Below are positions 3,436 through 41,684 of a stretch of DNA of 64,000 bases, one piece after another. The stretch is from a virus. Lineage: Duplodnaviria > Caudoviricetes. A model generated the notes under the pieces. It made no database searches and had not been told where the DNA came from. It saw nothing but the letters and a program-made list of their open reading frames with translations. Positions within the stretch are counted from its first letter, which is position 1. Every line of letters starts with the position of its first letter. The translations under genes and the position numbers were made by a program. The DNA lies in IMG/VR virus record IMGVR_UViG_3300029288_000066, positions 164,887 to 228,886 of that record, one strand, 5' to 3'.

Positions 3436-4195
3436 AAAACCTTGAGTTTACAGGCTTTAGTGAGCCAACTTTCGGAGGATTATTGTTTCCCCGCCTTATC
3501 CACATGCCTTGCGACACGTACCGACTCAATCTCGACTGCTATGGGCAATCACTCCTATCGTCACAGACTACTCTACTGCTACTTTAACCACAACAAGGGC
3601 GCCCCCCTGCAATAGCCTTTCACAATAATCCGTTGAACTTTGACATCCAACGTCCCCAATTCATCTTGCGATGTCAGGGTCTGAGAGACCTGTCGTCCAT
3701 AACGCCAGCGGAACTTTTTCTTTGCTTCTATTGTTTTTAGAGAATAGAGCGGTTTTTACCCCGCACCAAAGTATGTGTTTAATTAAGGATGTGCCGCTGG
3801 AACAGCTTCGCCACTTTTGGCGACGAAATACTATACACCTTCTGCGCCCTTTTGCATCAGTACGCTTTCATCTCCGAATCCTTCCTCCATCGCTGGAAGC
3901 GAGAATCCCAAAAACAAATGGAACACGCTCTATAGTCTGCTAAACGTTGAACATTATTCCTCGGTTTTTCCTGTTACCCCTTTCGGAGCTCAATCGCCTT
4001 AACACAATTTAGACGATATTCCACTCAGCAGTTGCCCTTGCAGAACGTACTAACCTATTGTATGCTCGACTTCCTTGTGAAAGCGGCGAGTTATAAACCC
4101 CACCTTTAATCCTGGTCACCCAGTTTATTTTGCCTGCCCCTTTCGGAACAGACCTTGACAACCCGTAGGCCACCAGTGACAGCACACTGCCACAA
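3436..4195 (-). ncRNA. large structured RNA, GOLLD-like
   Basis: About 760 nt, GC-richer than its flanks, no credible ORF, many GAAA/GCAA-capped hairpins on the minus strand. TATCTTTG promoter (~4250) and boxA (~4215) upstream; terminator 3395-3430 downstream. Family assignment is from size, context and recalled 3' motifs. Confidence 0.6.
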
Positions 4196-4312
4196 ATATT
4201 TTCAATATTTTAAAGAACTTTAAATCTTGGTTACTCACCTATAATGAGCAAAGATATATAATCTAAAAACAAAAAGCAACTTTTTTCTTGTTTTTTTTTA
4301 TTTTTTTTTAAA

Positions 4313-4397
4313 AAGACGTAAACAGGCCGCTCAACCACCTACCCTTGCTTTCTTCCGAACCTGGGGGAGTTCAGTAGGAGCTGGCCTATTACGCTTT
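4313..4397 (-). ncRNA. ffs: small SRP RNA (4.5S)
   Basis: Long hairpin containing CAGGTTCGGAAGAAAGCA, matching the Ffh-binding domain IV consensus CAGGUCCGGAAGGAAGCAG. Confidence 0.8.
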
Positions 4398-10476: not shown

Positions 10477-10988
10477 TTATAATAATCCCAGGTTTTTTAA
10501 TCTTTCGATTTCAATTTCATTTCTTTTTATTTTTTTTCTTAACAGAGTGTTATCGAAATCCAGTAGAAATGATTCTGGAATTTTGATATTTTTTTCTTTG
10601 AATTGGTTCAGCACTTCATCTTTTGTAAAGCTACATTCTACAATTCCGTCTGTCCATTGGTCTAGCCACAGACCCCAACTTTTTTTCCCTATTACAACAC
10701 CCTTTAAAATATTAGGATGACAGCTTTTTAGGTTATGAATTTTGATTTCGCCATTTTCGAATTTTCTATAACAAAATTTTCCTTCATCTGAATTTAAATC
10801 GAATTCCACTTTCACATCTGAGCCGCAGAATGTAAGAATTCCGCTTCTGTATGATGTTAAAAAGAAGGTGAAGATTTCATTAAATTTTTCAGAATATCTT
10901 TGAAGTTTTCTATGAATTCTACTTCCAGATTTCTCTTTTGTTTTTTCAATTCTTTTTAATCTTTCTTGGATTAAGTCGCTTTTCGCAT
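10477..10988 (-). CDS. hypothetical protein, probably frameshifted in an A-run just after the ATG
   Basis: The frame of 10477..10815 is open upstream to ~10985, but the ATG is one base out of frame. Confidence 0.5.
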
Positions 10989-11024
10989 GGTTGTTCCCTC
11001 CATATTAATTGTTTAAAAATAAAA

Positions 11025-11091
11025 TCAGGGAAAAATTTACTGAGAGAGTTTTTTGATTGGAAGTCGAAGTATCTCTACTGATTGCCACTGA
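11025..11091 (-). ncRNA. minimal Y-RNA-like stem without tRNA domain
   Basis: TCAGTGGCAA...AGATACTTCG...AAAACTCTC...TTCCCTGA. Confidence 0.65.
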
Positions 11092-11098
11092 TTTTTTG

Positions 11099-11169
11099 AG
11101 CGAAATGTGGGAATTAAACCCCTTCTACTAGTTGGAGGCCAGCCGCTTTATCGTTAAGCTACATCTCGC
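11099..11169 (-). tRNA. atypical tRNA-Gly (TCC), 8-bp acceptor and short T stem
   Basis: GCTGG-CCTCCAA-CTAGT; A19:U56. Confidence 0.65.
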
Positions 11170-11296
11170 ATTGTAGTGGTTTTGTATTAACCTGTGACCA
11201 CCAAACACCGCCAACATACGATTTGGAATGAGTGTGCAGCGGCTCTGAACCCGCTCTACGCCTTACATCATCTTCGTTCCCTTGTACTTCGGGCTT

Positions 11297-11372
11297 TGGA
11301 GCAGAAGACGGGGCTCGAACCCGCCACCTGGAGATTGGAAATCTCCCGCTCTACCAAATGAGCTACTTCTGC
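11297..11372 (-). tRNA. tRNA-Gly (TCC)
   Basis: Canonical cloverleaf with encoded CCA. Confidence 0.92.
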
Positions 11373-11465
11373 ATTGGTGCCAGACATTTTGAACTTTTTC
11401 ATTCACGGGCACTTTCGGGAAAACCCTATACATAACGCCCTGACAGCTATCTCGCCTCCGCTTTT

Positions 11466-12326
11466 TTAATTTAATTTCTTTTCGTAATATTTAATCCATT
11501 TTCTTACTGCATTATCAGAAACTCCATATTTTCTTCCGACTGCACTATAATTAGATTTTTTTAATTCTTCAACAAGTTCTATATAAGAAGGTCTCTGTGT
11601 TTTTCTTTGCCTAATTTCATCACACGATTTACATCTTTTCATACCTTTACCTATTTCATTTCCACATGCACAATAATTTTTATTTTTTTCTTTAATTTCT
11701 TTTATTTTATCAAAATATTGCTTTCCTATATTCTTTCCTCCATTAGTATTAAATGTAGCCGCACAATTTGGACAAACTATTCTTAAATTTTCCAATCTAT
11801 TATCATTATGATGCCCATTTTTATGGTCAAGAATCAAACTAATTTTTTCCCCATTCCAAACTTCTCCTTGTCCACATTTCTCGCATATTTTTTGTTTAAG
11901 TTCTTCTTTATATAATCTTTCTTTTAAATTTGTCGTATGATTATATGTTGAATTTTCAACTAATATGTCGGACAAATCAAATTTTCCAGAAACAAATCTA
12001 TTACCTGAAATGCCAAAATTAAAATGTGAAATGTCAATGTTGTATTTCTCTATATATTTTTTAATAGTATTTCTGTTACCACAATGAGTTGTAATTCCCA
12101 ATCTCCTAGCTACATCAGTATAGCTTTTAGACTCACCCACAACTTTTTTAAATTTTATTTCATTGTATTTTTCATTCCTACATTCAAGATTAAGAGCAAA
12201 ATGTTGTGCTTTACCTCTAATAGATGTTTTTGTCCTTTTTAATTCATTTGCACAAAATTCACATCCGTAGATTGGATAATTCTTTTTCAAGAATTCCACG
12301 TCTTTTTCTGTCCATTCTTTTTTCAT
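11466..12326 (-). CDS. HNH homing endonuclease
   Basis: CEKC...LDHKNGHHNDNRLENLRIVCPNC; paralogue of 26407..27183. Confidence 0.85.
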   Translation of the reverse strand: MKKEWTEKDVEFLKKNYPIYGCEFCANELKRTKTSIRGKAQHFALNLECRNEKYNEIKFKKVVGESKSYTDVARRLGITTHCGNRNTIKKYIEKYNIDISHFNFGISGNRFVSGKFDLSDILVENSTYNHTTNLKERLYKEELKQKICEKCGQGEVWNGEKISLILDHKNGHHNDNRLENLRIVCPNCAATFNTNGGKNIGKQYFDKIKEIKEKNKNYCACGNEIGKGMKRCKSCDEIRQRKTQRPSYIELVEELKKSNYSAVGRKYGVSDNAVRKWIKYYEKKLN

Positions 12327-12407
12327 GGTTTTTGTTTTTTCTTATAAATAGTTCAAAAAAACAAAAACTATAAATTTAACTATATAATTATCAACACACA
12401 AAAAAAG

Positions 12408-12478
12408 CGGAATGCGTGGGAATCGAACCCCTCCCTCAGCGTGACAAGCTGATATACAACCATTATACTGCGCACTCC
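12408..12478 (-). tRNA. tRNA-Asp (GTC), 8-bp acceptor and short T stem
   Basis: TCAGC-TTGTCAC-GCTGA. Confidence 0.78.
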
Positions 12479-12593
12479 ATTTTGTATATCTACACTATTA
12501 AAATTACATTAATAGCGTAGATATACTTTTTGAAATCTTTTTTTATTCCCAACATGTCAAAGAACTTTCCAATAGAATAAATCTATAGAAGAG

Positions 12594-12708: not shown

Positions 12709-12750
12709 AAAAAAAGAAACCCGAATCTTTTTGGGATTCGGGTCTGTTTA
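12709..12750 (-). terminator. attenuator terminator of tRNA operon A
   Basis: GACCCGAATC-loop-GATTCGGGTT plus U-tract, between the leader ORF and the first tRNA. Confidence 0.85.
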
Positions 12751-12775
12751 TTCCTTTTATAAGTTTACAACTTCA

Positions 12776-12886
12776 TTAAGGTTTAGTATTAAACATACCC
12801 GTCCCACATCCATAATCGGCATCAATCGCTGATGGATAGCCGCCCATCGGAGTTACTTCTAAACGATATGTAAAATTCTGTTTCAC
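12776..12886 (-). CDS. leader peptide, 36 aa: MKQNFTYRLEVTPMGGYPSAIDADYGCGTGMFNTKP
   Basis: GTG start. Rich in P/M/G/Y/A/D. Its 3' part is complementary to the terminator 5' arm. Confidence 0.8.
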   Translation of the reverse strand: MKQNFTYRLEVTPMGGYPSAIDADYGCGTGMFNTKP

Positions 12887-13056
12887 CTTTAATTAATTTT
12901 TATACTGTTGTTACTATTAAATATCTCAAAAAAATGTTTTTCATTTCTCTTCTACGGCAAAGGTACAAAAAAAGTTACATCAAATGCAAGTTTTTTTTCG
13001 TTTATTTTTAAAATAATTTTTAATTGATTGATTTACAATACACTTATTTTTAAAAT

Positions 13057-25789: not shown

Positions 25790-25864
25790 TGGTACCCTCA
25801 CCCAGAATCGAACTGGGATTTAAAGTTTAGGAAACTTCCGTTCTGTCCGTTGAACTATGAAGGC
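25790..25864 (-). tRNA. tRNA-Arg (CCT)
   Basis: GAAGT-TTCCTAA-ACTTT; encoded CCA. Confidence 0.9.
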
Positions 25865-25869
25865 ATTTG

Positions 25870-26043
25870 TTACATAAATTTTAACCTCAGCTTCGCCTTA
25901 TCGTACTTTGCCAAAGCTTTTTCATATTCTTCCTTAGAAACATTCTTTTTAAAGTTTTCACTTTGAACACGCTTTCTAAGAAATTCTACATATTCCTTAT
26001 GTCTTTCGACATCATCTTTTTTATTTTCTTGTTTCTTTTTCAT
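25870..26043 (-). CDS. small basic hypothetical protein
   Basis: MKKKQENK... ORF. Confidence 0.55.
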   Translation of the reverse strand: MKKKQENKKDDVERHKEYVEFLRKRVQSENFKKNVSKEEYEKALAKYDKAKLRLKFM

Positions 26044-26239
26044 AACTTCCATCTGGTAATTCTGGCAACAGCTGCCAGTGTGTAACATTCATAATTGACC
26101 ATCCTTTGCAATGCCCCGTTGGCTCATTCTTGTGACCATAGCCCCAAAAATAAGCTGTCACAATGCCAATTGGCGTTCCGCAAGCCAACACCTTTGTCCC
26201 AGGAGTTGGTAATTCATCCTTAATTGAAATCCATGTCAT
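26021..26239 (-). CDS. DUF551-like phage protein
   Basis: WISIKDELP...VTHWQLLPELP. Confidence 0.75.
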   Translation of the reverse strand: MTWISIKDELPTPGTKVLACGTPIGIVTAYFWGYGHKNEPTGHCKGWSIMNVTHWQLLPELPDGSYEKETRK

Positions 26240-26406
26240 ATTAATTTCTTTTAACCTCTCAGCAGAAAAATCAGGATACCTAACCGATATTGCGTTCGGG
26301 AACCTTTCAGTCCTCGGTGGTAAGAATGGGAAACTTTGGACATCTCCACTTACATACAACGGTATCCTAACCTCACTTTTTCATTTTCTGCCTTACTATT
26401 TTATTT

Positions 26407-27183
26407 TTAAATTATTTTATATGATTTTGCCCATTTTCTAATTGCATTGTCAGACACTCCATATTTTCTTCCAACAGCACAAAAAGACATTTTATTTAAC
26501 ATTTCTTGTAATTCCTCTTTTGTTGGCCTATCTTCTACCTTTCTAATATTTTCTCTAAGAAAACATTTTTTCTTATAAAAGTCAGGAGCATTCCTTTTTA
26601 CAAAGCCTCTTACATATTCCATACTCAATCCAGTTAAAATTGTAGTGTTATATACCCAGCTTTTCTTTGAAAAATCTATATTAGAATTCATTATTATATC
26701 AATATCTAATTTTACTCTTTCTGTCTTTATATTCTTTCCAGCATATGTTTTGGTTTGAGAATGACAGTTAGGGCACAACAATTCTAAATTTTCTAATCTA
26801 TTATCATTATGTGTTCCATTTTTATGTTCTAAGTGCAAAGAGATATAAAATCCATTCCATTCACTAATATTACATTTATTACATTTATATTCTAATAATC
26901 CTTCTTTTAATAATCTTTTTTTTAAACTCTCGTTGTTTTTATAGAGAGAATTTTCTATAAGAATTTCTTCCAAAGAATACTTTTTATTATTCTTTTCATA
27001 ATTAAAATTTCTTTTAAAGCTTGGGATGACTACCCCAAGAGTTTTGCAGTGTGACCTAAATGTTCTATAGGCTCCAGACCCATTAGAGTTAATACCTAAT
27101 TCAATAAAAATTTTTCTTAAAGAATCATATTTGTCAAAGAACGTTAAAAGCTCTTCTTTGGTTAAATTGACTATTTTTTTCAT
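26407..27183 (-). CDS. HNH homing endonuclease
   Basis: LEHKNGTHNDNRLENLELLCPNCH; C-terminal HTH GRKYGVSDNAIRKW. Confidence 0.85.
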   Translation of the reverse strand: MKKIVNLTKEELLTFFDKYDSLRKIFIELGINSNGSGAYRTFRSHCKTLGVVIPSFKRNFNYEKNNKKYSLEEILIENSLYKNNESLKKRLLKEGLLEYKCNKCNISEWNGFYISLHLEHKNGTHNDNRLENLELLCPNCHSQTKTYAGKNIKTERVKLDIDIIMNSNIDFSKKSWVYNTTILTGLSMEYVRGFVKRNAPDFYKKKCFLRENIRKVEDRPTKEELQEMLNKMSFCAVGRKYGVSDNAIRKWAKSYKII

Positions 27184-27255
27184 TTTTATTTATAAATAGT
27201 CAAAAAAAGTCAAATTAACCTGTAAAAAAATCTTTTAATTTGATGCTTATTTTAG

Positions 27256-27328
27256 CAGCCCAGGCAGGACTCAAACCTGCAACCAACGCTTTTGGAGAGC
27301 GCCATTCTATCAATTGAACTACTGACCT
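27256..27328 (-). tRNA. tRNA-Trp (CCA), A19:U56
   Basis: GCGCT-CTCCAAA-AGCGT. Confidence 0.82.
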
Positions 27329-27333
27329 ATTTG

Positions 27334-27404
27334 CAAGCATGGAAAGGTTCGAACTCTCGACTTTGGGTTTGGAAGCCAACGTGTTGCCACTACACCACAC
27401 ACCT
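27334..27404 (-). tRNA. tRNA-Trp (CCA)
   Basis: TTGGC-TTCCAAA-CCCAA; G73. Confidence 0.78.
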
Positions 27405-27412
27405 GTATTTTG

Positions 27413-27491
27413 CATAGGCAGAAGGATTCGAACCCTCACAGTTTTCACCACGCTTTTGGAGAGCGCTTATCTCACCAATGAATGTGCCTAT
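27413..27491 (-). tRNA. tRNA-Trp (CCA) with extended variable arm
   Basis: GCGCT-CTCCAAA-AGCGT followed by GGT-GAAA-ACT. Confidence 0.75.
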
Positions 27492-27674
27492 ATCTTTTTT
27501 CTTTCTCTTCTTAAATTATCCAACTCTACCTGCAAAACATTTCTTTTTTTATACAATTCAATTACCTTATCAATTGTTTCAGTATAATCAAAATTACGTT
27601 TGGCAAGTCTTTCAATTACCTCCTTTCTATTTTCTACTATGTACTTTATTTGTAACATCTTTTTTATTATTTTG

Positions 27675-27746
27675 TACCCAGGGAGGGACTCGAACCCCCG
27701 ACCAAAGCCTTAGAAGAGCCACGTTCTTCCACTGAACTACCTGGGC
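27675..27746 (-). tRNA. tRNA-Arg (TCT)
   Basis: Loop CTTCTAA; weak anticodon stem. Confidence 0.8.
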
Positions 27747-27837
27747 ATAACCAGAAAGATAGCACTGTTCCCCAAAAACCCACCACCAAGTGCCCTGGCG
27801 TAGACCAACGGTTGGGGTCTAAATTATCTTTCCTTTG

Positions 27838-27911
27838 TCTCTCTGGCGGGAGTTGGACCCACAACCTTCAGATTAGAAGTCTGACGCTCTATCCAGTTGA
27901 GCTACAGAGAG
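27838..27911 (-). tRNA. tRNA-Arg (TCT)
   Basis: TCAGA-CTTCTAA-TCTGA. Confidence 0.88.
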
Positions 27912-27916
27912 AATTT

Positions 27917-28006
27917 TGGCGGTAAGTAAGGGATTCGAACCCCTGGTGCCCTTTCGAGCACACATGCTTTCCAAGCATGCGCCTTAAACCACTCGGCCAA
28001 CTTACC
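27917..28006 (-). tRNA. tRNA-Ser (GGA)
   Basis: Canonical class II tRNA with encoded CCA. Confidence 0.92.
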
Positions 28007-28011
28007 ATTTG

Positions 28012-28098
28012 CGGAAGAAAGAGAGAACGATTCCCACGCCCCTAAAGGCGCCAACGGTATTCGAAGCCGTGGTGTCGCCACCCGACACTTTTTCTTCC
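28012..28098 (-). tRNA. tRNA-Ser (CGA), 8/4 allo-tRNA-like fold
   Basis: 8-bp acceptor, 6-bp D stem GTGTCG/CGACAC, long variable arm, 4-bp T stem. Confidence 0.7.
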
Positions 28099-28104
28099 AG
28101 TTTG

Positions 28105-28189
28105 CGGAGAGTGCGAGTACCGACCTCGCTTGGGCATTACCCCATCCTAAGTTTAGCAAACTTGACTCTTACCTTTCGAGCAACTCTCC
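28105..28189 (-). tRNA. tRNA-Ser (GCT), divergent T loop
   Basis: CAAGT-TTGCTAA-ACTTA. Confidence 0.75.
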
Positions 28190-28265
28190 ATTACGTAAAG
28201 CATGAATTGTGAAATATAATTTTTATTTTTTATTTTTTCCGCATATTTATTAATATAATACATTA

Positions 28266-28940
28266 TTGTTTATGATACCACTATATACTAAAAACGAATT
28301 TGACTTAGCAAAATCATCTGATAAACTTCCATTGCAATGTGAACTTTGTGGAGAAATTTTTTATACACAAAAAAGAATAATAAAAGACAAAAGAGGCGTC
28401 AAAAAGTTTTGTTCTTTTTCTTGTCTTGGAAAATCTACATTACAAAAAGTGTTAATTAATTGTAAACAATGTAACAAAGAATTCTTAATAAAAAAATCTC
28501 AATTAAAAAAAAGCGAAAATCATTTTTGTAGCATTTCTTGCAATGCTAATTATAACAATTCTCATAAAACATGTGGATTTAATCGTTCTAAACTTGAAAT
28601 TTATCTCGAAAAACAACTTGCGGCTTTATATCCAAATTTAGATATTCTTTATAACAACAAAGAAACAATTAATTCTGAATTGGACATTTACATTCCATCT
28701 TTTAAACTTGCGTTTGAACTCAATGGGATATTTCATTATGAACCAATATTTGGTAATGAAAAACTGAATCAAACAAAAAACAATGACAAAAATAAATTTA
28801 AATTATGCCAAGAACACAATATCTCTCTATGTATTATAGACACATCATCTCAAAAATATTTTAAAGAAAATACCTCTAAAAAATATCTTGATATAATTAC
28901 AAACATTATTTCAAAGAACTATTCTGCTGCTTTTTCCTAA
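28266..28940 (+). CDS. Zn-finger plus PD-(D/E)xK endonuclease, antisense to the tRNA operon
   Basis: Nuclease domain nearly identical to that of 8748..9449. Confidence 0.75.
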   Translation: MFMIPLYTKNEFDLAKSSDKLPLQCELCGEIFYTQKRIIKDKRGVKKFCSFSCLGKSTLQKVLINCKQCNKEFLIKKSQLKKSENHFCSISCNANYNNSHKTCGFNRSKLEIYLEKQLAALYPNLDILYNNKETINSELDIYIPSFKLAFELNGIFHYEPIFGNEKLNQTKNNDKNKFKLCQEHNISLCIIDTSSQKYFKENTSKKYLDIITNIISKNYSAAFS

Positions 28941-29014
28941 CATTAAAGGCTCGCTGAGCCTATAATGATGTTTTTAAACAGCAATAACTACAATACGTCA
29001 AAGAACATTTTTAG

Positions 29015-29104
29015 CGGAGGGAGTGAGGCTCGAACTCACACACCCTTTTAATGATTGACGGTTTTCAAAACCGCTGCCGATAGTCCTACTCGGCTTACCC
29101 CTCC
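29015..29104 (-). tRNA. tRNA-Ser (TGA)
   Basis: GCGGT-TTTGAAA-ACCGT; long variable region. Confidence 0.85.
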
Positions 29105-29125
29105 ATTCAATTCCAAAGAACAATT

Positions 29126-29161
29126 AAAAAACCCCCTTCAACTTTCCTAGTCGAAGGGGGC
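29126..29161 (-). terminator. attenuator terminator of tRNA operon B
   Basis: GCCCCCTTCGACT-loop-AGTTGAAGGGGGT plus U-tract. Confidence 0.88.
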
Positions 29162-29185
29162 TTTTCTAAAATATCTTATTACAAA

Positions 29186-29272
29186 TTAGAAAATATTCGG
29201 CCAGGAACAAGTAATTCTACTTGAGCTTCTTCTCCTGGATGACCAACTAATATTTCCTACTTTATTTTTCAT
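29186..29272 (-). CDS. leader peptide, 28 aa: MKNKVGNISWSSRRRSSSRITCSWPNIF
   Basis: Eleven consecutive S/W/R codons. Its 3' part is complementary to the terminator. Confidence 0.88.
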   Translation of the reverse strand: MKNKVGNISWSSRRRSSSRITCSWPNIF

Positions 29273-29473
29273 GCTATCAATAAATATGATAAAATTTTAT
29301 TTCTCGTTATTTTTTTCACTTCTTTTTTTTCATCAGCAAATAATGGTTTTCCTTGTGTCTTTCCTTTCGTGGCTTTCATAAATATAATCCACTCTTTTAA
29401 TACATCTGCTTTTAAGGACATTCCTGTTTTGCCATATCTTTATTTCTTTTGTACGTACAAAGGTATAAAAAAG

Positions 29474-29695
29474 TTACAATAAATGCAAGTTTTTTTTAAT
29501 TTTTTTTATAATTTCTTTTTCTTTTGTTCCAGCTTCTTCATATTCCATCGTACTTCCAGCACTGTTTTTTTTATCCCTCCATTCTTGCATTTTATACAAA
29601 TCTTCACCATAATTATTAATCAAATTTCTTACAGCAACACCCAGGTCATAATCGTTTGGGTATTTTTTTACTAATTCTTCTAATATTTCATTCAT
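29474..29695 (-). CDS. hypothetical protein
   Basis: ORF in an operon-like run. Confidence 0.55.
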   Translation of the reverse strand: MNEILEELVKKYPNDYDLGVAVRNLINNYGEDLYKMQEWRDKKNSAGSTMEYEEAGTKEKEIIKKIKKNLHLL

Positions 29696-31619: not shown

Positions 31620-31718
31620 AGTTTTTTGTTTTTTATACAATATAAAAAAAAATCCCCCCAAAATCAAGAGATTTCAGAGGAATTTTCAGAAACGAAAAGA
31701 AACGAAACGAAATTTTTG

Positions 31719-31792
31719 CCTCCCAGACAGGACTCGAACCTGCAACCAGCGGTACTAGAAGCCGCAGCTCTACCAAATTGAGCTACAAGGAG
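31719..31792 (-). tRNA. tRNA with CUA anticodon (amber suppressor)
   Basis: Normal D and T arms; GCGGC-TTCTAGT-ACCGC places CTA at positions 34-36. Confidence 0.75.
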
Positions 31793-33869: not shown

Positions 33870-36209
33870 TTAATACTTTAATCCAGTAGTAGAATCATAC
33901 AATCTTTCATTTTCCAATTTGTAAACTCCAAAGATATCATCATTCGCTTGGTGAAGGGATTCATAAGTTTTTTTTCTTACACTTATACAATTTTGTAAAA
34001 CAACGCCCCTTATTTTTTTAAACTCAATGCCCTTAACATCTCTCTCTTTATAATCCACAACACCTTGTAACTCATTAAATAACTTTACAAAATCACTCCA
34101 ATTCCCTTCGTTTTTCCCAACATAAATCGTATGAGATTCTGGGTCCCCTTGAATAAATTTGTATTTCCCTAAATTTTTAAAATTGCCATAAAGAATATCG
34201 TCTATTAAATTTTGTTCATCATTTACTTTCCCTTGCTCTATATGCTTGGACAATCCATAAAAATAACGCTCGCATCTTTCATGAAATTCTATTTCTGTCA
34301 TTGGTGATATTTTGCTTAAAATATCGTTTCTAAAGCTATTAGACATCATGTTGGCGTAAACCATATTACAATCATAATAATCGGATTCTTCGTCTTTGTA
34401 AACGAACAGAAACGTGTTTATCATACCAAATTCCCCATGTCTATTCCCCCTCCCATTTGATTGAACCACGCTTGATGGTGGTGCCGCATCTCTATATATA
34501 GATGGGAAGCTTATGTCTACCCCTGCCTCTATTACCTGGGTGCTTACTACTAATATTTTTTTATTATCCTGCAGGTCTTGCTTAATTTTATTTAATATTT
34601 GAATTCTATCATGGGGACTAATGTGGGAGTTTAGCAAATACACCTTCTCAAAAAGAGAACCGCTTTGCTTGAACTTATAATACATTTTTTGGGAGGTCTT
34701 GATGGTGTTTAAAATCAGTAGCGTTGCAACATTGGATTTTCTTACCGTTTCATATAAAGATTCTGAATCTAATTCTCCAATAAAATTTATAGTATATCTA
34801 TTAAATACTTCATCGTCGAAAACATCATTATTTAGGAGCTCAATTGGTGGATTTATGTTTTTTATTAGCTTTTTGAAGTTTGCGTTTGCTACGGTATTTA
34901 AATCAACATTCATATTTGGCATTGTTGCAGTGCTTATAATCGCATAACAATCATTCTTCTCGCAAAAATAAGCAAGAAGCTGTACAAATATTGCATATTG
35001 AGAAGGAGAAGTCGCCTGGTACTCATCAATTAAAAAGATTCTTTTTTTATAATTTTTAAGCCTCATTAGCTTACTCGTAGAATTATTCGCTAATGTTTCA
35101 AAAAGCTGATTAAACGTTGTCACTATAAATGGATGGTCAAAACAACTTTCTGAAAAAGCATATTCAGAAATTCCATCCAAATCTGTTCCTTCTTTTAACA
35201 TAGATTGAAGCTTCTCACTTACATCGGAAGAGCTGGTGTAATTTAAAGTCTGTATTTTTAAATCCTTATTTATGATTTCTACTGTTTGGTCAATTATGGA
35301 TAAAAATGGCAGCGAGTAAATAATATCATGCTCGTAGCTAAACTCCTTTAATATTTCAATTGCTAACTGAAGCATCATAAATGTTTTTCCACTTCCAGTG
35401 GGTGCCGTTAATGTAAAAACTCTTTGTTGGTTTATACAATTAAGCAATTTTTCTACTGCTTGCTTTCTTATTTTGTTCCTTGCTTCATTTAATTTTGTAT
35501 CGGCCTTAAAGTGCAAAAATATCCACTCAAGATTATTCTCAAGAACATAAGCATATCTCTTTCTTGACTTCTCTCTATAACAACTCTTATTTCCAGAAGC
35601 GTCTTTTCTGTCTCCATAAACTAATTCTCCATAAGTTTGAATAGTGTCAAAATAATGTTTTATAGACTCATCTTCCCATGATTTCAAATCAGACACTCTC
35701 CCAAATGATTTATAAAAGTTATTATTTTCCAAATCATCCACGAAATTCAATTTACAATTTAATAAGTCAAAGTTGTCTTCAAAAAATGTATTCACATGCT
35801 CCGTCATATTGATTGTTTTCAAATATGAAACCATTTTATCCCACTCCTCTTGATTGAATAGTTCGTCTATATTTCTCAAATATCCATGGTGCCCAACTAT
35901 AATATTTATCAAAATAATAAGTATACTTTCGTAATTATTATCATTAATGAATTTAAATCTGCCTTCTATTTCATCCTTATTGTTTACAAATGCATTAATG
36001 AGATAATATGATGAGATATATGAATGATTTGAATATCCATCAAAGGGCAATCCTACAATCTTTCTCTGAAAGTTGTCGTTCATTTTCCCAACATCGTGGA
36101 ATGATGCCGCAAGCAATTTTAAATCATCTAAATCACAATTGCTCAACACCCCCCTTGTGTGGTCTATCAACAATTTTGTTGGATGGGATTTTGGATTATA
36201 TCCTGACAT
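33870..36209 (-). CDS. cas3: Cas3 HD nuclease-helicase
   Basis: HDVGK, APTGSGKT, DEYQ, STAT, STQVIEAGVDI, QSNGRGNR. Confidence 0.93.
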   Translation of the reverse strand: MSGYNPKSHPTKLLIDHTRGVLSNCDLDDLKLLAASFHDVGKMNDNFQRKIVGLPFDGYSNHSYISSYYLINAFVNNKDEIEGRFKFINDNNYESILIILINIIVGHHGYLRNIDELFNQEEWDKMVSYLKTINMTEHVNTFFEDNFDLLNCKLNFVDDLENNNFYKSFGRVSDLKSWEDESIKHYFDTIQTYGELVYGDRKDASGNKSCYREKSRKRYAYVLENNLEWIFLHFKADTKLNEARNKIRKQAVEKLLNCINQQRVFTLTAPTGSGKTFMMLQLAIEILKEFSYEHDIIYSLPFLSIIDQTVEIINKDLKIQTLNYTSSSDVSEKLQSMLKEGTDLDGISEYAFSESCFDHPFIVTTFNQLFETLANNSTSKLMRLKNYKKRIFLIDEYQATSPSQYAIFVQLLAYFCEKNDCYAIISTATMPNMNVDLNTVANANFKKLIKNINPPIELLNNDVFDDEVFNRYTINFIGELDSESLYETVRKSNVATLLILNTIKTSQKMYYKFKQSGSLFEKVYLLNSHISPHDRIQILNKIKQDLQDNKKILVVSTQVIEAGVDISFPSIYRDAAPPSSVVQSNGRGNRHGEFGMINTFLFVYKDEESDYYDCNMVYANMMSNSFRNDILSKISPMTEIEFHERCERYFYGLSKHIEQGKVNDEQNLIDDILYGNFKNLGKYKFIQGDPESHTIYVGKNEGNWSDFVKLFNELQGVVDYKERDVKGIEFKKIRGVVLQNCISVRKKTYESLHQANDDIFGVYKLENERLYDSTTGLKY

Positions 36210-36252
36210 AAATCTTTTCTTTATATAAATTATACGGCTTAAATTACAATTT

Positions 36253-37468
36253 GTTACAGATTACTTAAAGTTTTTAGGTGTGAACAATAATAGCGCAACA
36301 GTGTCACAATAAAGCAGGATTGTAATTACAAATAATTTACAAATGATGAACAATAACATTTTCTTGTACAGTGAATGCACCATTTTAATTGCAAGTAGCT
36401 TGTAAATAACAAACGGCAACAAACATTCCTTCTGATAAATATAATCAATTTTAATTACAAACAATTTATAGATAATAAACAGCTTTTACTGAAAACGAAA
36501 CTGGTGTAGCTCCATTATAATTACAAATAATTTATAGATGATATGCCAATGTTTTCATTGGATTAACGGCTTCGCTGGATTGTAATTACAGACAATTTAT
36601 AGAAGATAAGTAACAAGACACTATTTTTTATTATTGTGCAATACATTATAATTACGAGTAATTTATAAATGATGAGCATCAGCAACACTATATAGTCAAG
36701 CAGGCACTTGGTTGTAATTACAAATAGTTTGTAAGCGATGAGCAATTGGTAGCACAGCTACAGGATATTTCTTTGAGTTGTAATTACAAGTAGTTTGTAG
36801 GTGATGAATAACAGCGCAATTCCATACACGAAATATTCAGCAGTTGTAATTACAAGTAGTTTGTAGGTGATGAACAACACAAACCGCAAAATATGTAACA
36901 ATCCAATCGTTGTAATTACAAACAATTTGTAGGTGATGAACAACTTATTGCAAATTTACTATTTATAACAACACATTGTAATTACAAACAGCTTGTAGGT
37001 GATGAACAACCCTGAGAGCGAAGCAATACGAGACGGCGGGTTGTAATTACAAACAGCTTGTAGGTGATGAACAACTGTCTAGTTGTATCTTTAAATATAT
37101 TCTCGTTGTAATTACAAACAGCTTGTAGGTGATGAACAACCAATTCCTTTTAATTTAACCCACTCCAATAGTTGTAATTACAAACAGCTTGTAGGTGATG
37201 AACAACATAAGAATGTAAATATTGTGATGGATTCAGGTTGTAATTACAAACAGCTTGTAGGTGATGAACAACAATGTTGTGTTCTCCAAATCAATTTACA
37301 AAGTTGTAATTACAAACAGCTTGTAGGTGATGAACAACAAACCAGCATGATTCAGGTGTCAATGCATGTTGTAATTACAAACAGCTTGTAGGTGATGAAC
37401 AACTTTTGAATTGGTTGGATAACCAGCCTTTCGTTGTAATTACAAACAGCTTGTAGGTGATGAACAAC
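36253..37468 (-). CRISPR. CRISPR array: 19 repeats (36 nt, GTTGTTCATCACCTACAAGCTGTTTGTAATTACAAC) and 18 spacers, mostly 29-30 nt
   Basis: Seven identical repeats at 37040-37468 with progressive decay toward cas3; AT-rich leader at 37469-37548. Confidence 0.95.
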
Positions 37469-37548
37469 AGAACATATCAGACTGGCTGCTATCATCCATT
37501 TTTAATATAAAAATGAAATAAAAAAATGATATAAAACTCTATTTATTG

Positions 37549-38265
37549 TTAAATAAATTCTATATTTTCATTTTCTACTTTGTGATAGTTTCCATGAGCT
37601 TTAAGTGTTTCACAATTATCATTAAAATAAATGGTTTTAAAACTTTTTAAATCATGAGCCAAATAAGATTCGCTTCTAGTGGGTATATCATCAGTTCTTA
37701 TGTGCTCAAATGATTGGACATCATCAAGAACAATATTTGTGCAAATAGCTGAGGTCTCAAAATTCCCATTACATGGCTTGGCATCATATGCCCCTATATA
37801 TTTTATTTCTGCCATAAAATTTGCCATTCCCATATATGGAGGAAAGATAAATTCTTCATTTTTAATATTCTCAACAAAATTATTCAACATCGTCTTTATG
37901 TCAAAATCATCTTCTTCATATAATACATAGATACTGTAACTAACATCCACAAGCCTTTCAAACTTTGACGGCGTGTACATCGGTCTGTCAGGTTTTACAA
38001 GATTTCCATGATTGTAACCATATTCTGACCAATATTTTATTTGGAACGGTTTCTTTAATTTAACAGAATATCGAATTTTTTCTGTAAGAATTTTATAGAG
38101 ATTGTTCGATTTCATAAACTCTTTTTCCACGCCAATCACCGCACAGATAATGCCTATTAAAGCTGATTTCGGCATAATGCAAAATGTGCTTGGATTGTTG
38201 TTGCTTTGTGGACGCTGGAACGCACCCAATGCACTATTAATATTAAATACAATTGCTTTTTCCAT
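37549..38265 (-). CDS. cas5: Cas5
   Basis: GAFQRPQSN...PKSALIGIICAVIG...PYMGMANF. Confidence 0.88.
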   Translation of the reverse strand: MEKAIVFNINSALGAFQRPQSNNNPSTFCIMPKSALIGIICAVIGVEKEFMKSNNLYKILTEKIRYSVKLKKPFQIKYWSEYGYNHGNLVKPDRPMYTPSKFERLVDVSYSIYVLYEEDDFDIKTMLNNFVENIKNEEFIFPPYMGMANFMAEIKYIGAYDAKPCNGNFETSAICTNIVLDDVQSFEHIRTDDIPTRSESYLAHDLKSFKTIYFNDNCETLKAHGNYHKVENENIEFI

Positions 38266-38266
38266 A

Positions 38267-39262
38267 TTAATCAGAGCTTACAAGATTTATAAGTGCGTCA
38301 AATGGGTCAACAATTTTACAATTTTCTGGAAGACATGAAAAATGCTTTTGAACAAATTCTTCATCATCACAATATATTGTAACATTATCCACAACATTTT
38401 TTACTGTTTTTTCAATTTCCACTTTTAATGGAGAAAAATCTAACTCATAGTCATTCTTACAATAAATCTCATTTAATGAACTTTTTGGGACTAAATTAAA
38501 TGGTATAAAATCTTTTCTTAATGTTCTTCCCAAACAGCCTTCTTTCGTTAATTCTGTTGGATGTTCAACAACAATAAAAGCGATTGGAGATTGTCCTTGC
38601 TTCGACCTTGAATTTGCTGAGCTTATCCCATCCCAAATTGCTGTTAACATAAGCGCAACATCTTTGTCTGATGCTTTGTTTAACTTTGCCACCTGAGCAG
38701 AAAACCTCCCTTTGATACAAAACAACCCATATTTAAGAAATGAATCTCTTCCCATGCTTCCTTGCCCCTTTTTTATATCTGATGGGAAAATACTTGTTAT
38801 TCCTCTATTTATAATGTTTTTCCCATGAATTACTTCATTAATGCTTTCGTTTTCCGCATCAAATTGTAAAGCCCCAGTTATACTTGCTTTGTAATCTTTT
38901 GATGTTAATGCCGCCCCGAATATTCTGACATCTGAAAATTCTTTTAAAAGAATATCCATAGCCTTTTCTGAAGAAAATTTTTTGTCGATTTCATAGCCCT
39001 TATCTTTACAAAACGCAACAAATCTTGCGGCTGCCCCAGAAAGCTTTTTTCCATCTTGTTCGATGGATTCTCTATCGTAAAAATAGAAAACTTGTTCCCC
39101 AACGCTTTCAAGCTTGTCTCTCCCATATCTTTTGATTCTCAAATCTGAAACGACAGCTCTTTTGGTTGCTTCGTTATATCTCTGTTCCCCTTCGTTATCT
39201 GGGTCTCCATTTGGAGTACAATTCACAGTTTCATAAATTAAATAAATACTTTTGTTTTTCAT
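38267..39262 (-). CDS. cas7: Cas7 (Csh2/Csd2 type)
   Basis: PNGDPD...VSDLRIKR...DVRIFG...SRSK. Confidence 0.9.
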   Translation of the reverse strand: MKNKSIYLIYETVNCTPNGDPDNEGEQRYNEATKRAVVSDLRIKRYGRDKLESVGEQVFYFYDRESIEQDGKKLSGAAARFVAFCKDKGYEIDKKFSSEKAMDILLKEFSDVRIFGAALTSKDYKASITGALQFDAENESINEVIHGKNIINRGITSIFPSDIKKGQGSMGRDSFLKYGLFCIKGRFSAQVAKLNKASDKDVALMLTAIWDGISSANSRSKQGQSPIAFIVVEHPTELTKEGCLGRTLRKDFIPFNLVPKSSLNEIYCKNDYELDFSPLKVEIEKTVKNVVDNVTIYCDDEEFVQKHFSCLPENCKIVDPFDALINLVSSD

Positions 39263-39302
39263 GATTAATTTTATTTTATAACGTTAAATTTATTGCGTGA
39301 TT

Positions 39303-40976
39303 TTAGTCTTTTTCTTCGGATTCAGCATTCTCATCACCCTCATTTTCTTTTGCATTATAAGTATTCTTTTCTGCAAAATAACCCATTATGAATTTGTTTT
39401 TTTCGAAACCTTCATCTTTCATAGATTGTAAAAGCACCAAAAGTTCATTATGTTCTCCTGGCGTTATTCTATTTCTTTGCATCCTCTCGCACAAGTCTAT
39501 ATAATAAAGGAAAACATCTTGTGTTTTATAAACACGTCTGCTAACATTCCCAGTAAACTGTTGAATTGTTTTTTTCAAGTTTTCTCTTCCTTTCTTCCAC
39601 CCAGATTCAAATTTAGCTAGCTCTGCTCCTAATTTATAAGAGTTACTATCCAAAAGGTCTGATACAAAGCTTTTGTTTTCCATAGTTTTCAAAAATTTAT
39701 ATATTTTAAAAATATCATTCCATTTTTTTGCAAATTGCCCCTCGTCAGTTCTGGCAATGTGTTGTGAGTTATCTAAAAGGCAGAATTCTGCTTGGGGTGG
39801 AACTCTATAGTTTCCTTGGTAGATATTCTGCAGAGTTTTTAATATAAGAGAGTTATATCTATCATTTTTTTTATTATAGTCTTGATATATGCCCAAAAGA
39901 ACCGCTATTAAAAAATTCCCTGGTATATTCTTCTCTCCATATATTAATTTATATGATTCATTTAAGTGGTCCCTTATTCCAATAATTTGACTATATCTAA
40001 TCCCAGAAAGTCGGAGCATATTGCTGTCTCCCAACTTTGTTCTATATTTATAATATAAGTCAAATTTTAATTGTAACGGTATCATTTTTTTTAACTGTAA
40101 ATCTCTTTTCGATTTACTTTCAATAAAGTTTTGTATGGTATTACAAAAAAGGTCAAAATTAAATATGTTTTTTCCGCAAGGAGATAAATAATCAATATCT
40201 TCATAAGTGATATTTTCATAATTTGGTAAAATAGAAACAGAGTAATCTCCAAACATAAATCCTTTTTTGTTAAACACGCTCCTTGCATAATAAAGATTCA
40301 GAAAATCGTCTTTGCTAAAATATGGAATAGAGCCTTCTGGCATTGTTTTAACCCCCCTAATTTCGAATTTTCCATAGTTAAACATATTGTAAAATGAACT
40401 CAAGAAAACATATCCTTTTCCCTTTATAAAATTTTTCTGAAGAAACATTGAATCCATTTCGTCCAAAAACCCTACAAATGATTGTAATTTGTCTCTTCTC
40501 CCATTCATGACAACATCAACACTTAATGAAATCTCTTTGACCTTTTTGTTCTCCTTTTCTTTTTCATATAATTCTGCAAACAAGTTGGAGTTTCTTTCCA
40601 ATATCTTTCTATATTTGTAAATCAGTGAATCCGATGTTATTTTATATTGTTTGACATATTTATCTTCAAATAATCGAAACGACACTTGCTCTAAGAAATC
40701 TTCCACCTTAATAACAGTACTCCCGCACAAATAGCTAGCCACAGTGTCTGCACTACTAACAACAAATTTTATTGTTTTTAGCTTGGGAACAATTTCTGAT
40801 GTGTTTATTTGCACTGTTTCATTATCCATATTTACAGTCACATCATAAGATACAATATCCTCTTTTACCTTCTCTTTTTCAGCCAAATTTCTACTAGAAA
40901 TCATTGGATAGAATTCCGATTTGGCTATGTCGCTTTTCCTAATAGCTTTCCCTATGTTTATAAAAGTGTTGTCCAT
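39303..40976 (-). CDS. cas8b: Cas8b-like large subunit
   Basis: Position between cas6 and cas7, size, and helical Cas11-like C-terminus (YKLG...FIMGY). Confidence 0.7.
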   Translation of the reverse strand: MDNTFINIGKAIRKSDIAKSEFYPMISSRNLAEKEKVKEDIVSYDVTVNMDNETVQINTSEIVPKLKTIKFVVSSADTVASYLCGSTVIKVEDFLEQVSFRLFEDKYVKQYKITSDSLIYKYRKILERNSNLFAELYEKEKENKKVKEISLSVDVVMNGRRDKLQSFVGFLDEMDSMFLQKNFIKGKGYVFLSSFYNMFNYGKFEIRGVKTMPEGSIPYFSKDDFLNLYYARSVFNKKGFMFGDYSVSILPNYENITYEDIDYLSPCGKNIFNFDLFCNTIQNFIESKSKRDLQLKKMIPLQLKFDLYYKYRTKLGDSNMLRLSGIRYSQIIGIRDHLNESYKLIYGEKNIPGNFLIAVLLGIYQDYNKKNDRYNSLILKTLQNIYQGNYRVPPQAEFCLLDNSQHIARTDEGQFAKKWNDIFKIYKFLKTMENKSFVSDLLDSNSYKLGAELAKFESGWKKGRENLKKTIQQFTGNVSRRVYKTQDVFLYYIDLCERMQRNRITPGEHNELLVLLQSMKDEGFEKNKFIMGYFAEKNTYNAKENEGDENAESEEKD

Positions 40977-40985
40977 TTACAAAAT

Positions 40986-41684
40986 CTAAAGATTAAAAAT
41001 GAATCCAAATCCACACCCAGTTGACTTCCCAACACCAAGCCCATAAAAAAGAGATTTAACGTCTGCCGTTCCTGTTATTTTAATTTTTCCAGAAGTTGTA
41101 ATGTTAAGACTCCCCTTATATGGGATTGCCCTTTCTTTTATTGGACTATTCAAATCGAATTCAATGTTAAAATCACTTTCAGAAAAATTATATCCCAACT
41201 TCTGCGTTTTCCATAAAAAGATTCTTTTTAAATACTTAGATGCCATCTCATTGCCGTGTTTATATGTTACATGTTCTCTCTTAAGAGAGTCTGCGTTCTG
41301 GCCAAGATATATTGGAGAAGTTCCTGTGGTAATTGTTCCTGGAATATCACCAAATTGTTTGATTGAGTATTCCACATCTTTAAGGATTAGCCCTTTTGAA
41401 AATTCTTTGGTAACAGCGTTTTTTCCCTTCAAATAAAAGTCTTTAAAAACATCAATGACTGGCGTTCTAATCAAAAGAATTGCGCCAGTTTCACATGACA
41501 ATTCACTTTTAGATGTTAATTTACCCCCAAGCAGTGGACTTACGGAATATAAACTAACAGCATCATGATAGTTGTTGTCTTTCCCCAATACATGATTATG
41601 AAGGAAAGAGCTTATGTGGCTGATTTCACTTGGAACTGGCTGTTTGCTTCCATAAAAATAAAACTTTGTCGTATATATTTTCAT
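40986..41684 (-). CDS. cas6: Cas6 endoribonuclease
   Basis: C-terminal GVGKSTGCGFG loop. Confidence 0.9.
   Translation of the reverse strand: MKIYTTKFYFYGSKQPVPSEISHISSFLHNHVLGKDNNYHDAVSLYSVSPLLGGKLTSKSELSCETGAILLIRTPVIDVFKDFYLKGKNAVTKEFSKGLILKDVEYSIKQFGDIPGTITTGTSPIYLGQNADSLKREHVTYKHGNEMASKYLKRIFLWKTQKLGYNFSESDFNIEFDLNSPIKERAIPYKGSLNITTSGKIKITGTADVKSLFYGLGVGKSTGCGFGFIFNL

Follow-up and report, generated by a model that had tools for sequence, protein, structure and literature searches.

A predicted ribosome-coupled attenuator heads a Ser/Arg/Trp tRNA operon, one of six leader-headed tRNA operons in a phage genome

What decides when a phage transcribes its tRNA genes? The question is raised by an operon of serine, arginine and tryptophan tRNA genes in the virus record IMGVR_UViG_3300029288_000066. 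The window, which is the whole stretch of DNA that was analysed, covers 64,000 nucleotides at the end of this linear record of 228,886 bases (approximately 82% complete; G000 in the comparisons below). The record includes genes for the large subunit of a terminase and for a sigma factor of its own. The host is likely to be a member of the Bacteroidota, because the promoters take the Bacteroidota form TTG...TAnnTTTG (PMC6847099). Positions are those of the window, and its features lie on the minus strand unless stated otherwise. The operon is predicted, with a probability of about 0.88, to be controlled by a ribosome-coupled transcription attenuator of the trp/his type, and to be one of six operons controlled in this manner. 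A first-pass annotation had recognized the layout of such an attenuator, and it is supported by the match of codons to tRNAs, the specificity of this match for the reading frame, an antiterminator that depends on the position of the ribosome, five more operons in the same genome, two orthologous units, and leaders that track reshuffled sets of tRNAs.

The leader open reading frame (ORF; 29272-29186) has 28 codons and no Shine-Dalgarno sequence, and an A is present at position -3. Codons 9-19 (29216..29248), the control codons, belong to segment 1 of the leader RNA and read SWSSRRRSSSR, with serine, tryptophan or arginine at 11 of 11 positions, as noticed in the first pass. The codon families of these three amino acids make up 10.9% of the codons of the genome. 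The best 12-codon window of the leader contains 11 matches, a value equalled by none of 20,000 nucleotide shuffles (P=5e-5), and the excess over the whole ORF has a binomial probability of 1.4e-6. The genes downstream, which extend to position 25790, had been described as ten tRNAs for serine, arginine and tryptophan only. This holds when tRNAs are called by ARAGORN with a relaxed threshold, whereas default ARAGORN finds eight and Rfam seven; tRNA-Ser(GCT) and tRNA-Ser(CGA) are seen only at the relaxed threshold, because their T loops are atypical. TCG, the codon of tRNA-Ser(CGA), is absent from the leader. The arginine codons of the leader are exclusively AGA and AGG, as the first-pass annotation had pointed out in matching them to the TCT and CCT anticodons, but this agreement was rejected as stand-alone evidence: AGA and AGG account for 1548 of the 1897 arginine codons of the genome (82%), so four of four would be expected by chance approximately 44% of the time.

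An intrinsic terminator with 18 base pairs, a U tract and a folding energy of -27 kcal/mol occupies positions 29166-29126, between the leader ORF and the first tRNA gene, where a strong terminator had been proposed. It is followed by the boxA-like sequence GTTCTTTG (29113..29121) and then by the first tRNA. The segment of the leader at 29189..29207 (segment 2) can pair in folding predictions either with segment 1, forming helix 1:2, or with the 5' arm and loop of the terminator (segment 3, 29155-29144), forming the antiterminator 2:3. The complementarity of 11 out of 12 positions between the 3' part of the ORF (29207-29196) and the terminator (29155-29144), reported in the first pass, is correct; the duplex has an energy of -13.8 kcal/mol, with a shuffle P=0.0085.

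The leader was folded with and without a mask representing the footprint of a ribosome, as the first-pass annotation had suggested. Without a ribosome, the control codons are predicted to pair with the 3' part of the ORF and the terminator forms. A mask for a ribosome stalled at any one of the control codons leads segment 2 to pair with the 5' arm and loop of the terminator, and this pairing is lost when the mask reaches the stop codon. With half of the 3' arm of the terminator made, the probability of the terminator is 0.00-0.01 under the stall mask but 0.83 when the ribosome has reached the stop codon, and 0.82 with no ribosome. The other five units behave similarly under the mask; in several of them, the antiterminator is weaker when the stall is at the final control codons. 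In several units it forms even without a ribosome.

In the proposed mechanism, RNA polymerase would start upstream of the leader, which would be translated by a ribosome. If the serine, tryptophan and AGR arginine codons were read fast, the ribosome would reach the stop codon and cover segment 2, the terminator would form, and no tRNAs would be made. If reading were slow, the ribosome would stall on segment 1, segment 2 would capture the 5' arm and loop of the terminator, and the polymerase would enter the Ser/Arg/Trp tRNA genes. The supply of tRNA would thus be driven by demand, and the loop would be self-limiting, because the product tRNAs read the sensed codons. We infer that the leader is translated, that ribosomes stall on it, that read-through is regulated, and that a shortage of tRNA is the main trigger.

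The Ser/Arg/Trp operon is not the only one of its kind. The genome has six tRNA operons, among which the tRNA genes are distributed according to amino acid, and each operon is headed by an ORF of 26-36 codons and a terminator. Besides the Ser/Arg(AGR)/Trp unit, they comprise an Asp/Gly/Ala/Tyr/Met/Pro unit (12709..12989), with a promoter at 12989, a 36-codon leader at 12886-12776 (core PMGGYPSAIDADYG), a terminator, and tRNAs at 12683-7823; an Asn/His/Thr/Lys unit (leader core HINTKTNKHNNT); a Lys/Ile/Met unit (IIKKSISIKIKK); a Leu/Cys unit (LCLCLLL); and a Gln/Phe/Arg(CGN)/Val unit (QRFFQVVFFVQQ). All six leaders fit their own operons (best-window shuffle P<=5.5e-4 each), and the true pairing of leaders with operons ranks first of 720. 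The operons cover 19 amino acids, and no Glu unit is present on this incomplete contig; a Glu leader (EESEE) precedes two tRNA-Glu genes in contig L013. Upstream of the latter (L013 2775-3026), a promoter motif runs straight to a tRNA-Met(CAT) without a leader, whereas the subsequent Glu tRNAs have their leader; the initiator tRNA may be exempt from gating there.

The same design recurs in other phages. Homologues of the operon's HNH gene led to orthologous Ser/Arg/Trp units in L096 (core WSSSRRSSRW) and L099 (SRSSRSRSWSSRSSS), whose terminators differ in sequence, yet each retains its own complement in the leader; in L096, an 8-bp complement is kept to an unrelated terminator sequence. In phage G001, the tRNAs are partitioned differently, into the groups Asp/Gly/Arg/Cys/Met, Glu/Pro/Arg/Thr/Ala/Val, His/Phe/Ser/Lys/Trp, Ile/Asn/Met/Gln and Tyr/Leu, and five leaders match them, including KHSKHFSSSSKWF for His/Phe/Ser/Lys/Trp and LYYLYLYLY for Tyr/Leu. 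The first-pass annotation had called for a scan of related phages against controls, and the signal was found in two sets of units. In a blind set of 20 units, drawn from G000, from G001 and from seven further contigs, leaders were picked by position only. On average 8.65 of 10 codons matched in frame, versus 3.1 and 2.6 when the frame was shifted (permutation P<5e-6); the unit's own tRNA set ranked first for 18 of the 20; and the mean energy of the cognate antiterminator duplex was -15.7 kcal/mol, versus -8.6 kcal/mol for non-cognate duplexes (permutation P<5e-6). In a held-out set, loci were chosen only by the pattern of a terminator followed by boxA. At least two tRNAs were found at 63 of 73 viral loci, and 59 units had a mean -logP of 3.0 versus 1.0 (P<1e-5). 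Short ORFs are plentiful (162 in 12 kb), and a low-complexity ORF could lie beside a tRNA cluster by chance, but this explanation is refuted by the permutation, frame and held-out controls and retains practically no probability. The analysis shows the parts of the unit, the match between codons and tRNAs, and the alternative pairings together with their conservation.

The terminator and boxA pattern was found at 41 loci in cellular (bacterial) genomes, two of which had at least two tRNAs and neither of these a leader, in a sample too small to exclude cellular cases. A DNA pattern derived from the codon run of the leader matched 16 loci, which are regarded as chance matches because none has tRNAs. 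The exact promoter pattern had no match across viral contigs, searches for related loci from radical-SAM-like and HNH proteins returned no relatives, and the cultured phage collection contained no close relative, only matches to single tRNAs or proteins with <40% identity.

The leaders are conserved in composition and not in sequence. This bears on the explanation that the leader peptides have a function as small proteins, or that a phage antiterminator acting at boxA-like sites overrides the terminator, with no ribosome switch. The boxA-like motif is approximately nine-fold enriched in the six operons (15 copies versus 1.7 expected), and it may have a role in antitermination. However, the terminator precedes even the first boxA, and it is composition and antiterminator pairing that are conserved, not peptide sequence, which makes this explanation very improbable. 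Somewhat less remote, but still improbable, is a general timer of translation load, or of transcription-translation uncoupling during infection, that codon matching merely tunes. The formation of the antiterminator without a ribosome in several units fits such a timer, as does the single leader in L158, L168 and L207 that samples most amino acids for an operon of 16-18 tRNAs and resembles a broad sensor. However, a timer would need neither six mutually distinct leaders per genome nor the exact tracking of reshuffled tRNA sets, and the Ser/Arg/Trp unit terminates in the no-ribosome state.

What the attenuator senses is a separate question. It is possible, though rather unlikely, that the main job of the same switch is to sense amino-acid starvation through uncharged tRNA, as in biosynthetic operons, and not the loss of tRNA. 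An attenuator cannot distinguish uncharged from missing tRNA, and the match is mostly at the level of amino acids. In L109, a Gln/Pro/Trp/Asn unit with a Gln-rich leader is followed by a gene for a Glu/Gln-tRNA synthetase (10876-12525), which recalls the control of synthetases. The supply of tRNA is nevertheless favoured as the sensed quantity, because extra tRNA would not be expected to relieve a shortage of amino acids, and because the codon families in leaders tend to follow the isoacceptors of the operon. For arginine the counts are 14/0 versus 1/3 (Fisher p=0.005), and the values are p=0.007 for leucine and p=0.05 for serine, all from small and non-independent counts; the rare CGC codon of this phage is located in the leader of the ACG operon. 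The Salmonella his attenuator responds to changes in codons and tRNA, and not only to the level of the amino acid (PMC11805395).

Several results weigh against the attenuator as proposed. At full length and equilibrium, the terminator of the Ser/Arg/Trp unit has a probability of 0.99 in every state of the ribosome, and an equilibrium model of the switch was rejected. The antiterminator excludes the terminator, is freed by the stall mask and is blocked at the stop codon in the co-transcriptional predictions only; therefore, according to the folding model, the switch must be kinetic, with the decision made during transcription, as described for classical attenuators (PMC3082878). Helix 1:2 is predicted in the Ser/Arg/Trp unit but does not reach significance by shuffling (P=0.10), and its prediction varies among the units, some of which lack it. 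A late-type motif at 27199 may be an internal promoter, through which an HNH gene and tRNA-Arg(CCT) could escape control. Under the fixed rule, no leader was obtained for 14 tRNA arrays among the viral loci of the held-out set, which may be explained by truncation or by the thresholds. Moreover, the units include close relatives, and for want of phylogenetic independence among them the independent evidence is smaller than the P values suggest; the reshuffled partitions of tRNAs with matching leaders are a stronger argument than the P values.

A wider proposal, for which we see even chances, is that the attenuators form a modular tRNA homeostat in a broad group of large phages. The genetic code would be divided among operons, each leader reporting the shortage of its own isoacceptors, and the phage would detect the tRNAs depleted by a host anticodon nuclease or by its own demand, and make replacements for these tRNAs only. 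Where host defences cleave tRNA, infection can be rescued by tRNAs of the phage (PMC11555353). If the proposal is true, the codons of the leaders are a readable record of the tRNAs that are limiting in infection.

The putative promoter of the Ser/Arg/Trp operon (29458..29488) has the full TTG...TAnnTTTG motif, which is found at just five positions of the 229-kb genome, all of them upstream of the leader of a tRNA operon. Between this promoter and the leader lies an ORF of 50 amino acids (29269..29421), whose TGA overlaps the ATG of the leader as ATGA, and it is possible that the two are translationally coupled. Directly before the leader is a late/middle-type motif, WTATTTATW (29279..29287); 28% of the occurrences of this motif are no more than 60 nt from the start of an ORF, compared to 4% expected, and it probably acts as a promoter. 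The tRNA genes begin with tRNA-Ser(TGA) (29014..29104), identified by ARAGORN. Next are the two with atypical T loops, tRNA-Ser(GCT) (28104..28189), which folds as a cloverleaf, and tRNA-Ser(CGA) (about 28017..28091), which has a T-loop sequence similar to that of the matching Ser tRNA of L096. The remaining genes are recognized by both ARAGORN and Rfam: tRNA-Ser(GGA) (27917..28006), two copies of tRNA-Arg(TCT) (27837..27911 and 27674..27746), three of tRNA-Trp(CCA) (27412-27491, weak at 31.5 bits; 27333-27404; 27255-27328), and tRNA-Arg(CCT) (25790..25864), the last gene of the unit. An HNH/homing endonuclease gene is inserted antisense, on the plus strand (28266..28940; PHROG 559, E=6.5e-14), and a second HNH endonuclease gene (26407-27183; PHROG 10822, E=5e-41) is preceded by the late-type motif at 27199. 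Further boxA-like copies are located at 29006, 28919 and 27142. Two structured non-coding stretches inside the operon, 27745-27835 and 26262-26400, have no Rfam match; the latter folds better than shuffled sequences (z=-2.4), whereas the former does not.

Several observations concern leaders and tRNAs elsewhere. A two-operon variant is present in L158, L168, L207 and L209: the leader that heads 16-18 tRNAs includes most amino acids approximately once, and the remaining tRNAs are covered by another leader, which is rich in Leu/Gly/Asp/Glu. In the orthologous Leu/Cys leaders of L113 (3740-3940, minus strand) and L061 (10070-10270, minus strand), seven control codons are kept and both strands of the antiterminator change together, and a downstream one-base indel alters the tail of the peptide. 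An ORF that by eye resembles ribosomal protein bL12 directly follows a terminator in L078 (2746-3123), and genes for a CCA-adding enzyme and IF3 lie near or inside leader-controlled units in L099 (17250-20272). A tRNA with a CTA anticodon, like that of an amber suppressor (31718-31792), is located outside the leader-controlled operons of the window, though TAG is apparently a stop codon; an alternative genetic code was rejected, as TAG terminates 10 of 121 long ORFs. In L096, a tRNA with a TTA anticodon is located upstream of the Ser/Arg/Trp unit.

A recurring element (AGTGGCAA...TACTTCG, an insert, and ...TTTCCCTGAT), which has no Rfam family, wraps pieces of tRNA at 11090-11020, 10385-10240, 9570-9410 and 8435-8275 of the window, at about 139735-139595 and 155345-155190 of G000, and at 5368-5496 of L001. 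At 9570-9410, the 3' half of a tRNA-Gly precedes its 5' half, giving a circularly permuted look, and in L001 a sequence resembling the element lies within the anticodon arm of tRNA-Arg(TCT), which it splits as an intron would. The region 33870-41684 encodes a Cas3-like HD-helicase (779 amino acids, homology match, the only match tested), and the ORFs upstream resemble Cas5/7/8/6 by appearance, suggesting a phage-borne type I CRISPR-Cas set. The phage also has a GOLLD RNA, a bacterial small signal recognition particle (SRP) RNA, and a permuted transfer-messenger RNA (tmRNA; window 3439-3843 and 4310-4397; G000 84078-84424).

How does the unit compare with known systems? It has the four structural features of a trp-type attenuator: a leader ORF, related control codons, a terminator, and an antiterminator that excludes it. 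Leader attenuators also include trpL, thrL and that of ilvGMEDA, and the thr and ilv leaders are multivalent, as are the phage leaders. As in the attenuators of amino-acid biosynthesis (E. coli pheL-pheA, PMC3082878; Salmonella his, PMC11805395), a short leader ORF containing a stretch of control codons is combined with alternative 2:3 and 3:4 helices, a predicted 1:2 helix, and a U-tract terminator; architecture and logic match those of pheL (PMC3082878). Unlike in these attenuators, the genes controlled are those of tRNAs, together with the inserted HNH genes, and not of enzymes; the product reads the sensed codons; and six leaders share out 19 amino acids, with arginine split by codon family. 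An Rfam scan gave no leader family (Trp, His, Leu, Thr or Phe) above the cut-off for the Ser/Arg/Trp leader, and the leader at 12886-12776 has a sub-threshold match to Thr_leader (25.5 bits, cut-off 55). The E. coli pheM-pheST attenuator, which controls Phe-tRNA synthetase, likewise acts on a component of translation, but its product is a protein that charges tRNA, a single amino acid is involved, and it is chromosomal. T-box riboswitches resemble the phage unit in that the state of tRNA sets the choice between terminator and antiterminator, but they bind uncharged tRNA directly without translation and precede genes for synthetases, transport and biosynthesis; a survey found none in Bacteroidetes (PMC2494555). 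Rfam matched no T-box in the 64-kb window, where neither a stem I specifier loop nor a T-box antiterminator was found.

Why phages should carry tRNAs is a question of decades' standing (PMC10264068). Phage tRNAs are reported to counter anticodon nucleases, likewise by replacing those of the host (PMC11555353, PMC11464382, PMC10264068), a plausible purpose here. As the first-pass annotation had supposed, attenuation of tRNA genes themselves appears undescribed: no report was found in literature searches on tRNA genes and phage that were directed at attenuation, at leader peptides or at T-boxes and whose coverage largely excluded subscription journals, and a direct feedback loop on tRNA supply was not found described. 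The attenuator proposed here would extend attenuation to stable-RNA genes and to viruses. A conditional, codon-specific switch would imply that phage tRNAs are an on-demand reserve and not a constitutive supplement to codon usage. Each leader would be a ready reporter of the shortage of a defined set of tRNAs, making rival ideas on phage tRNAs testable. The tRNA-Tyr of phage SP15 relies on a strong promoter, and the text that describes it contains neither 'attenuat' nor 'leader' (PMC11555353), whereas the Ser/Arg/Trp operon would be opened by the ribosome stalled on its leader.

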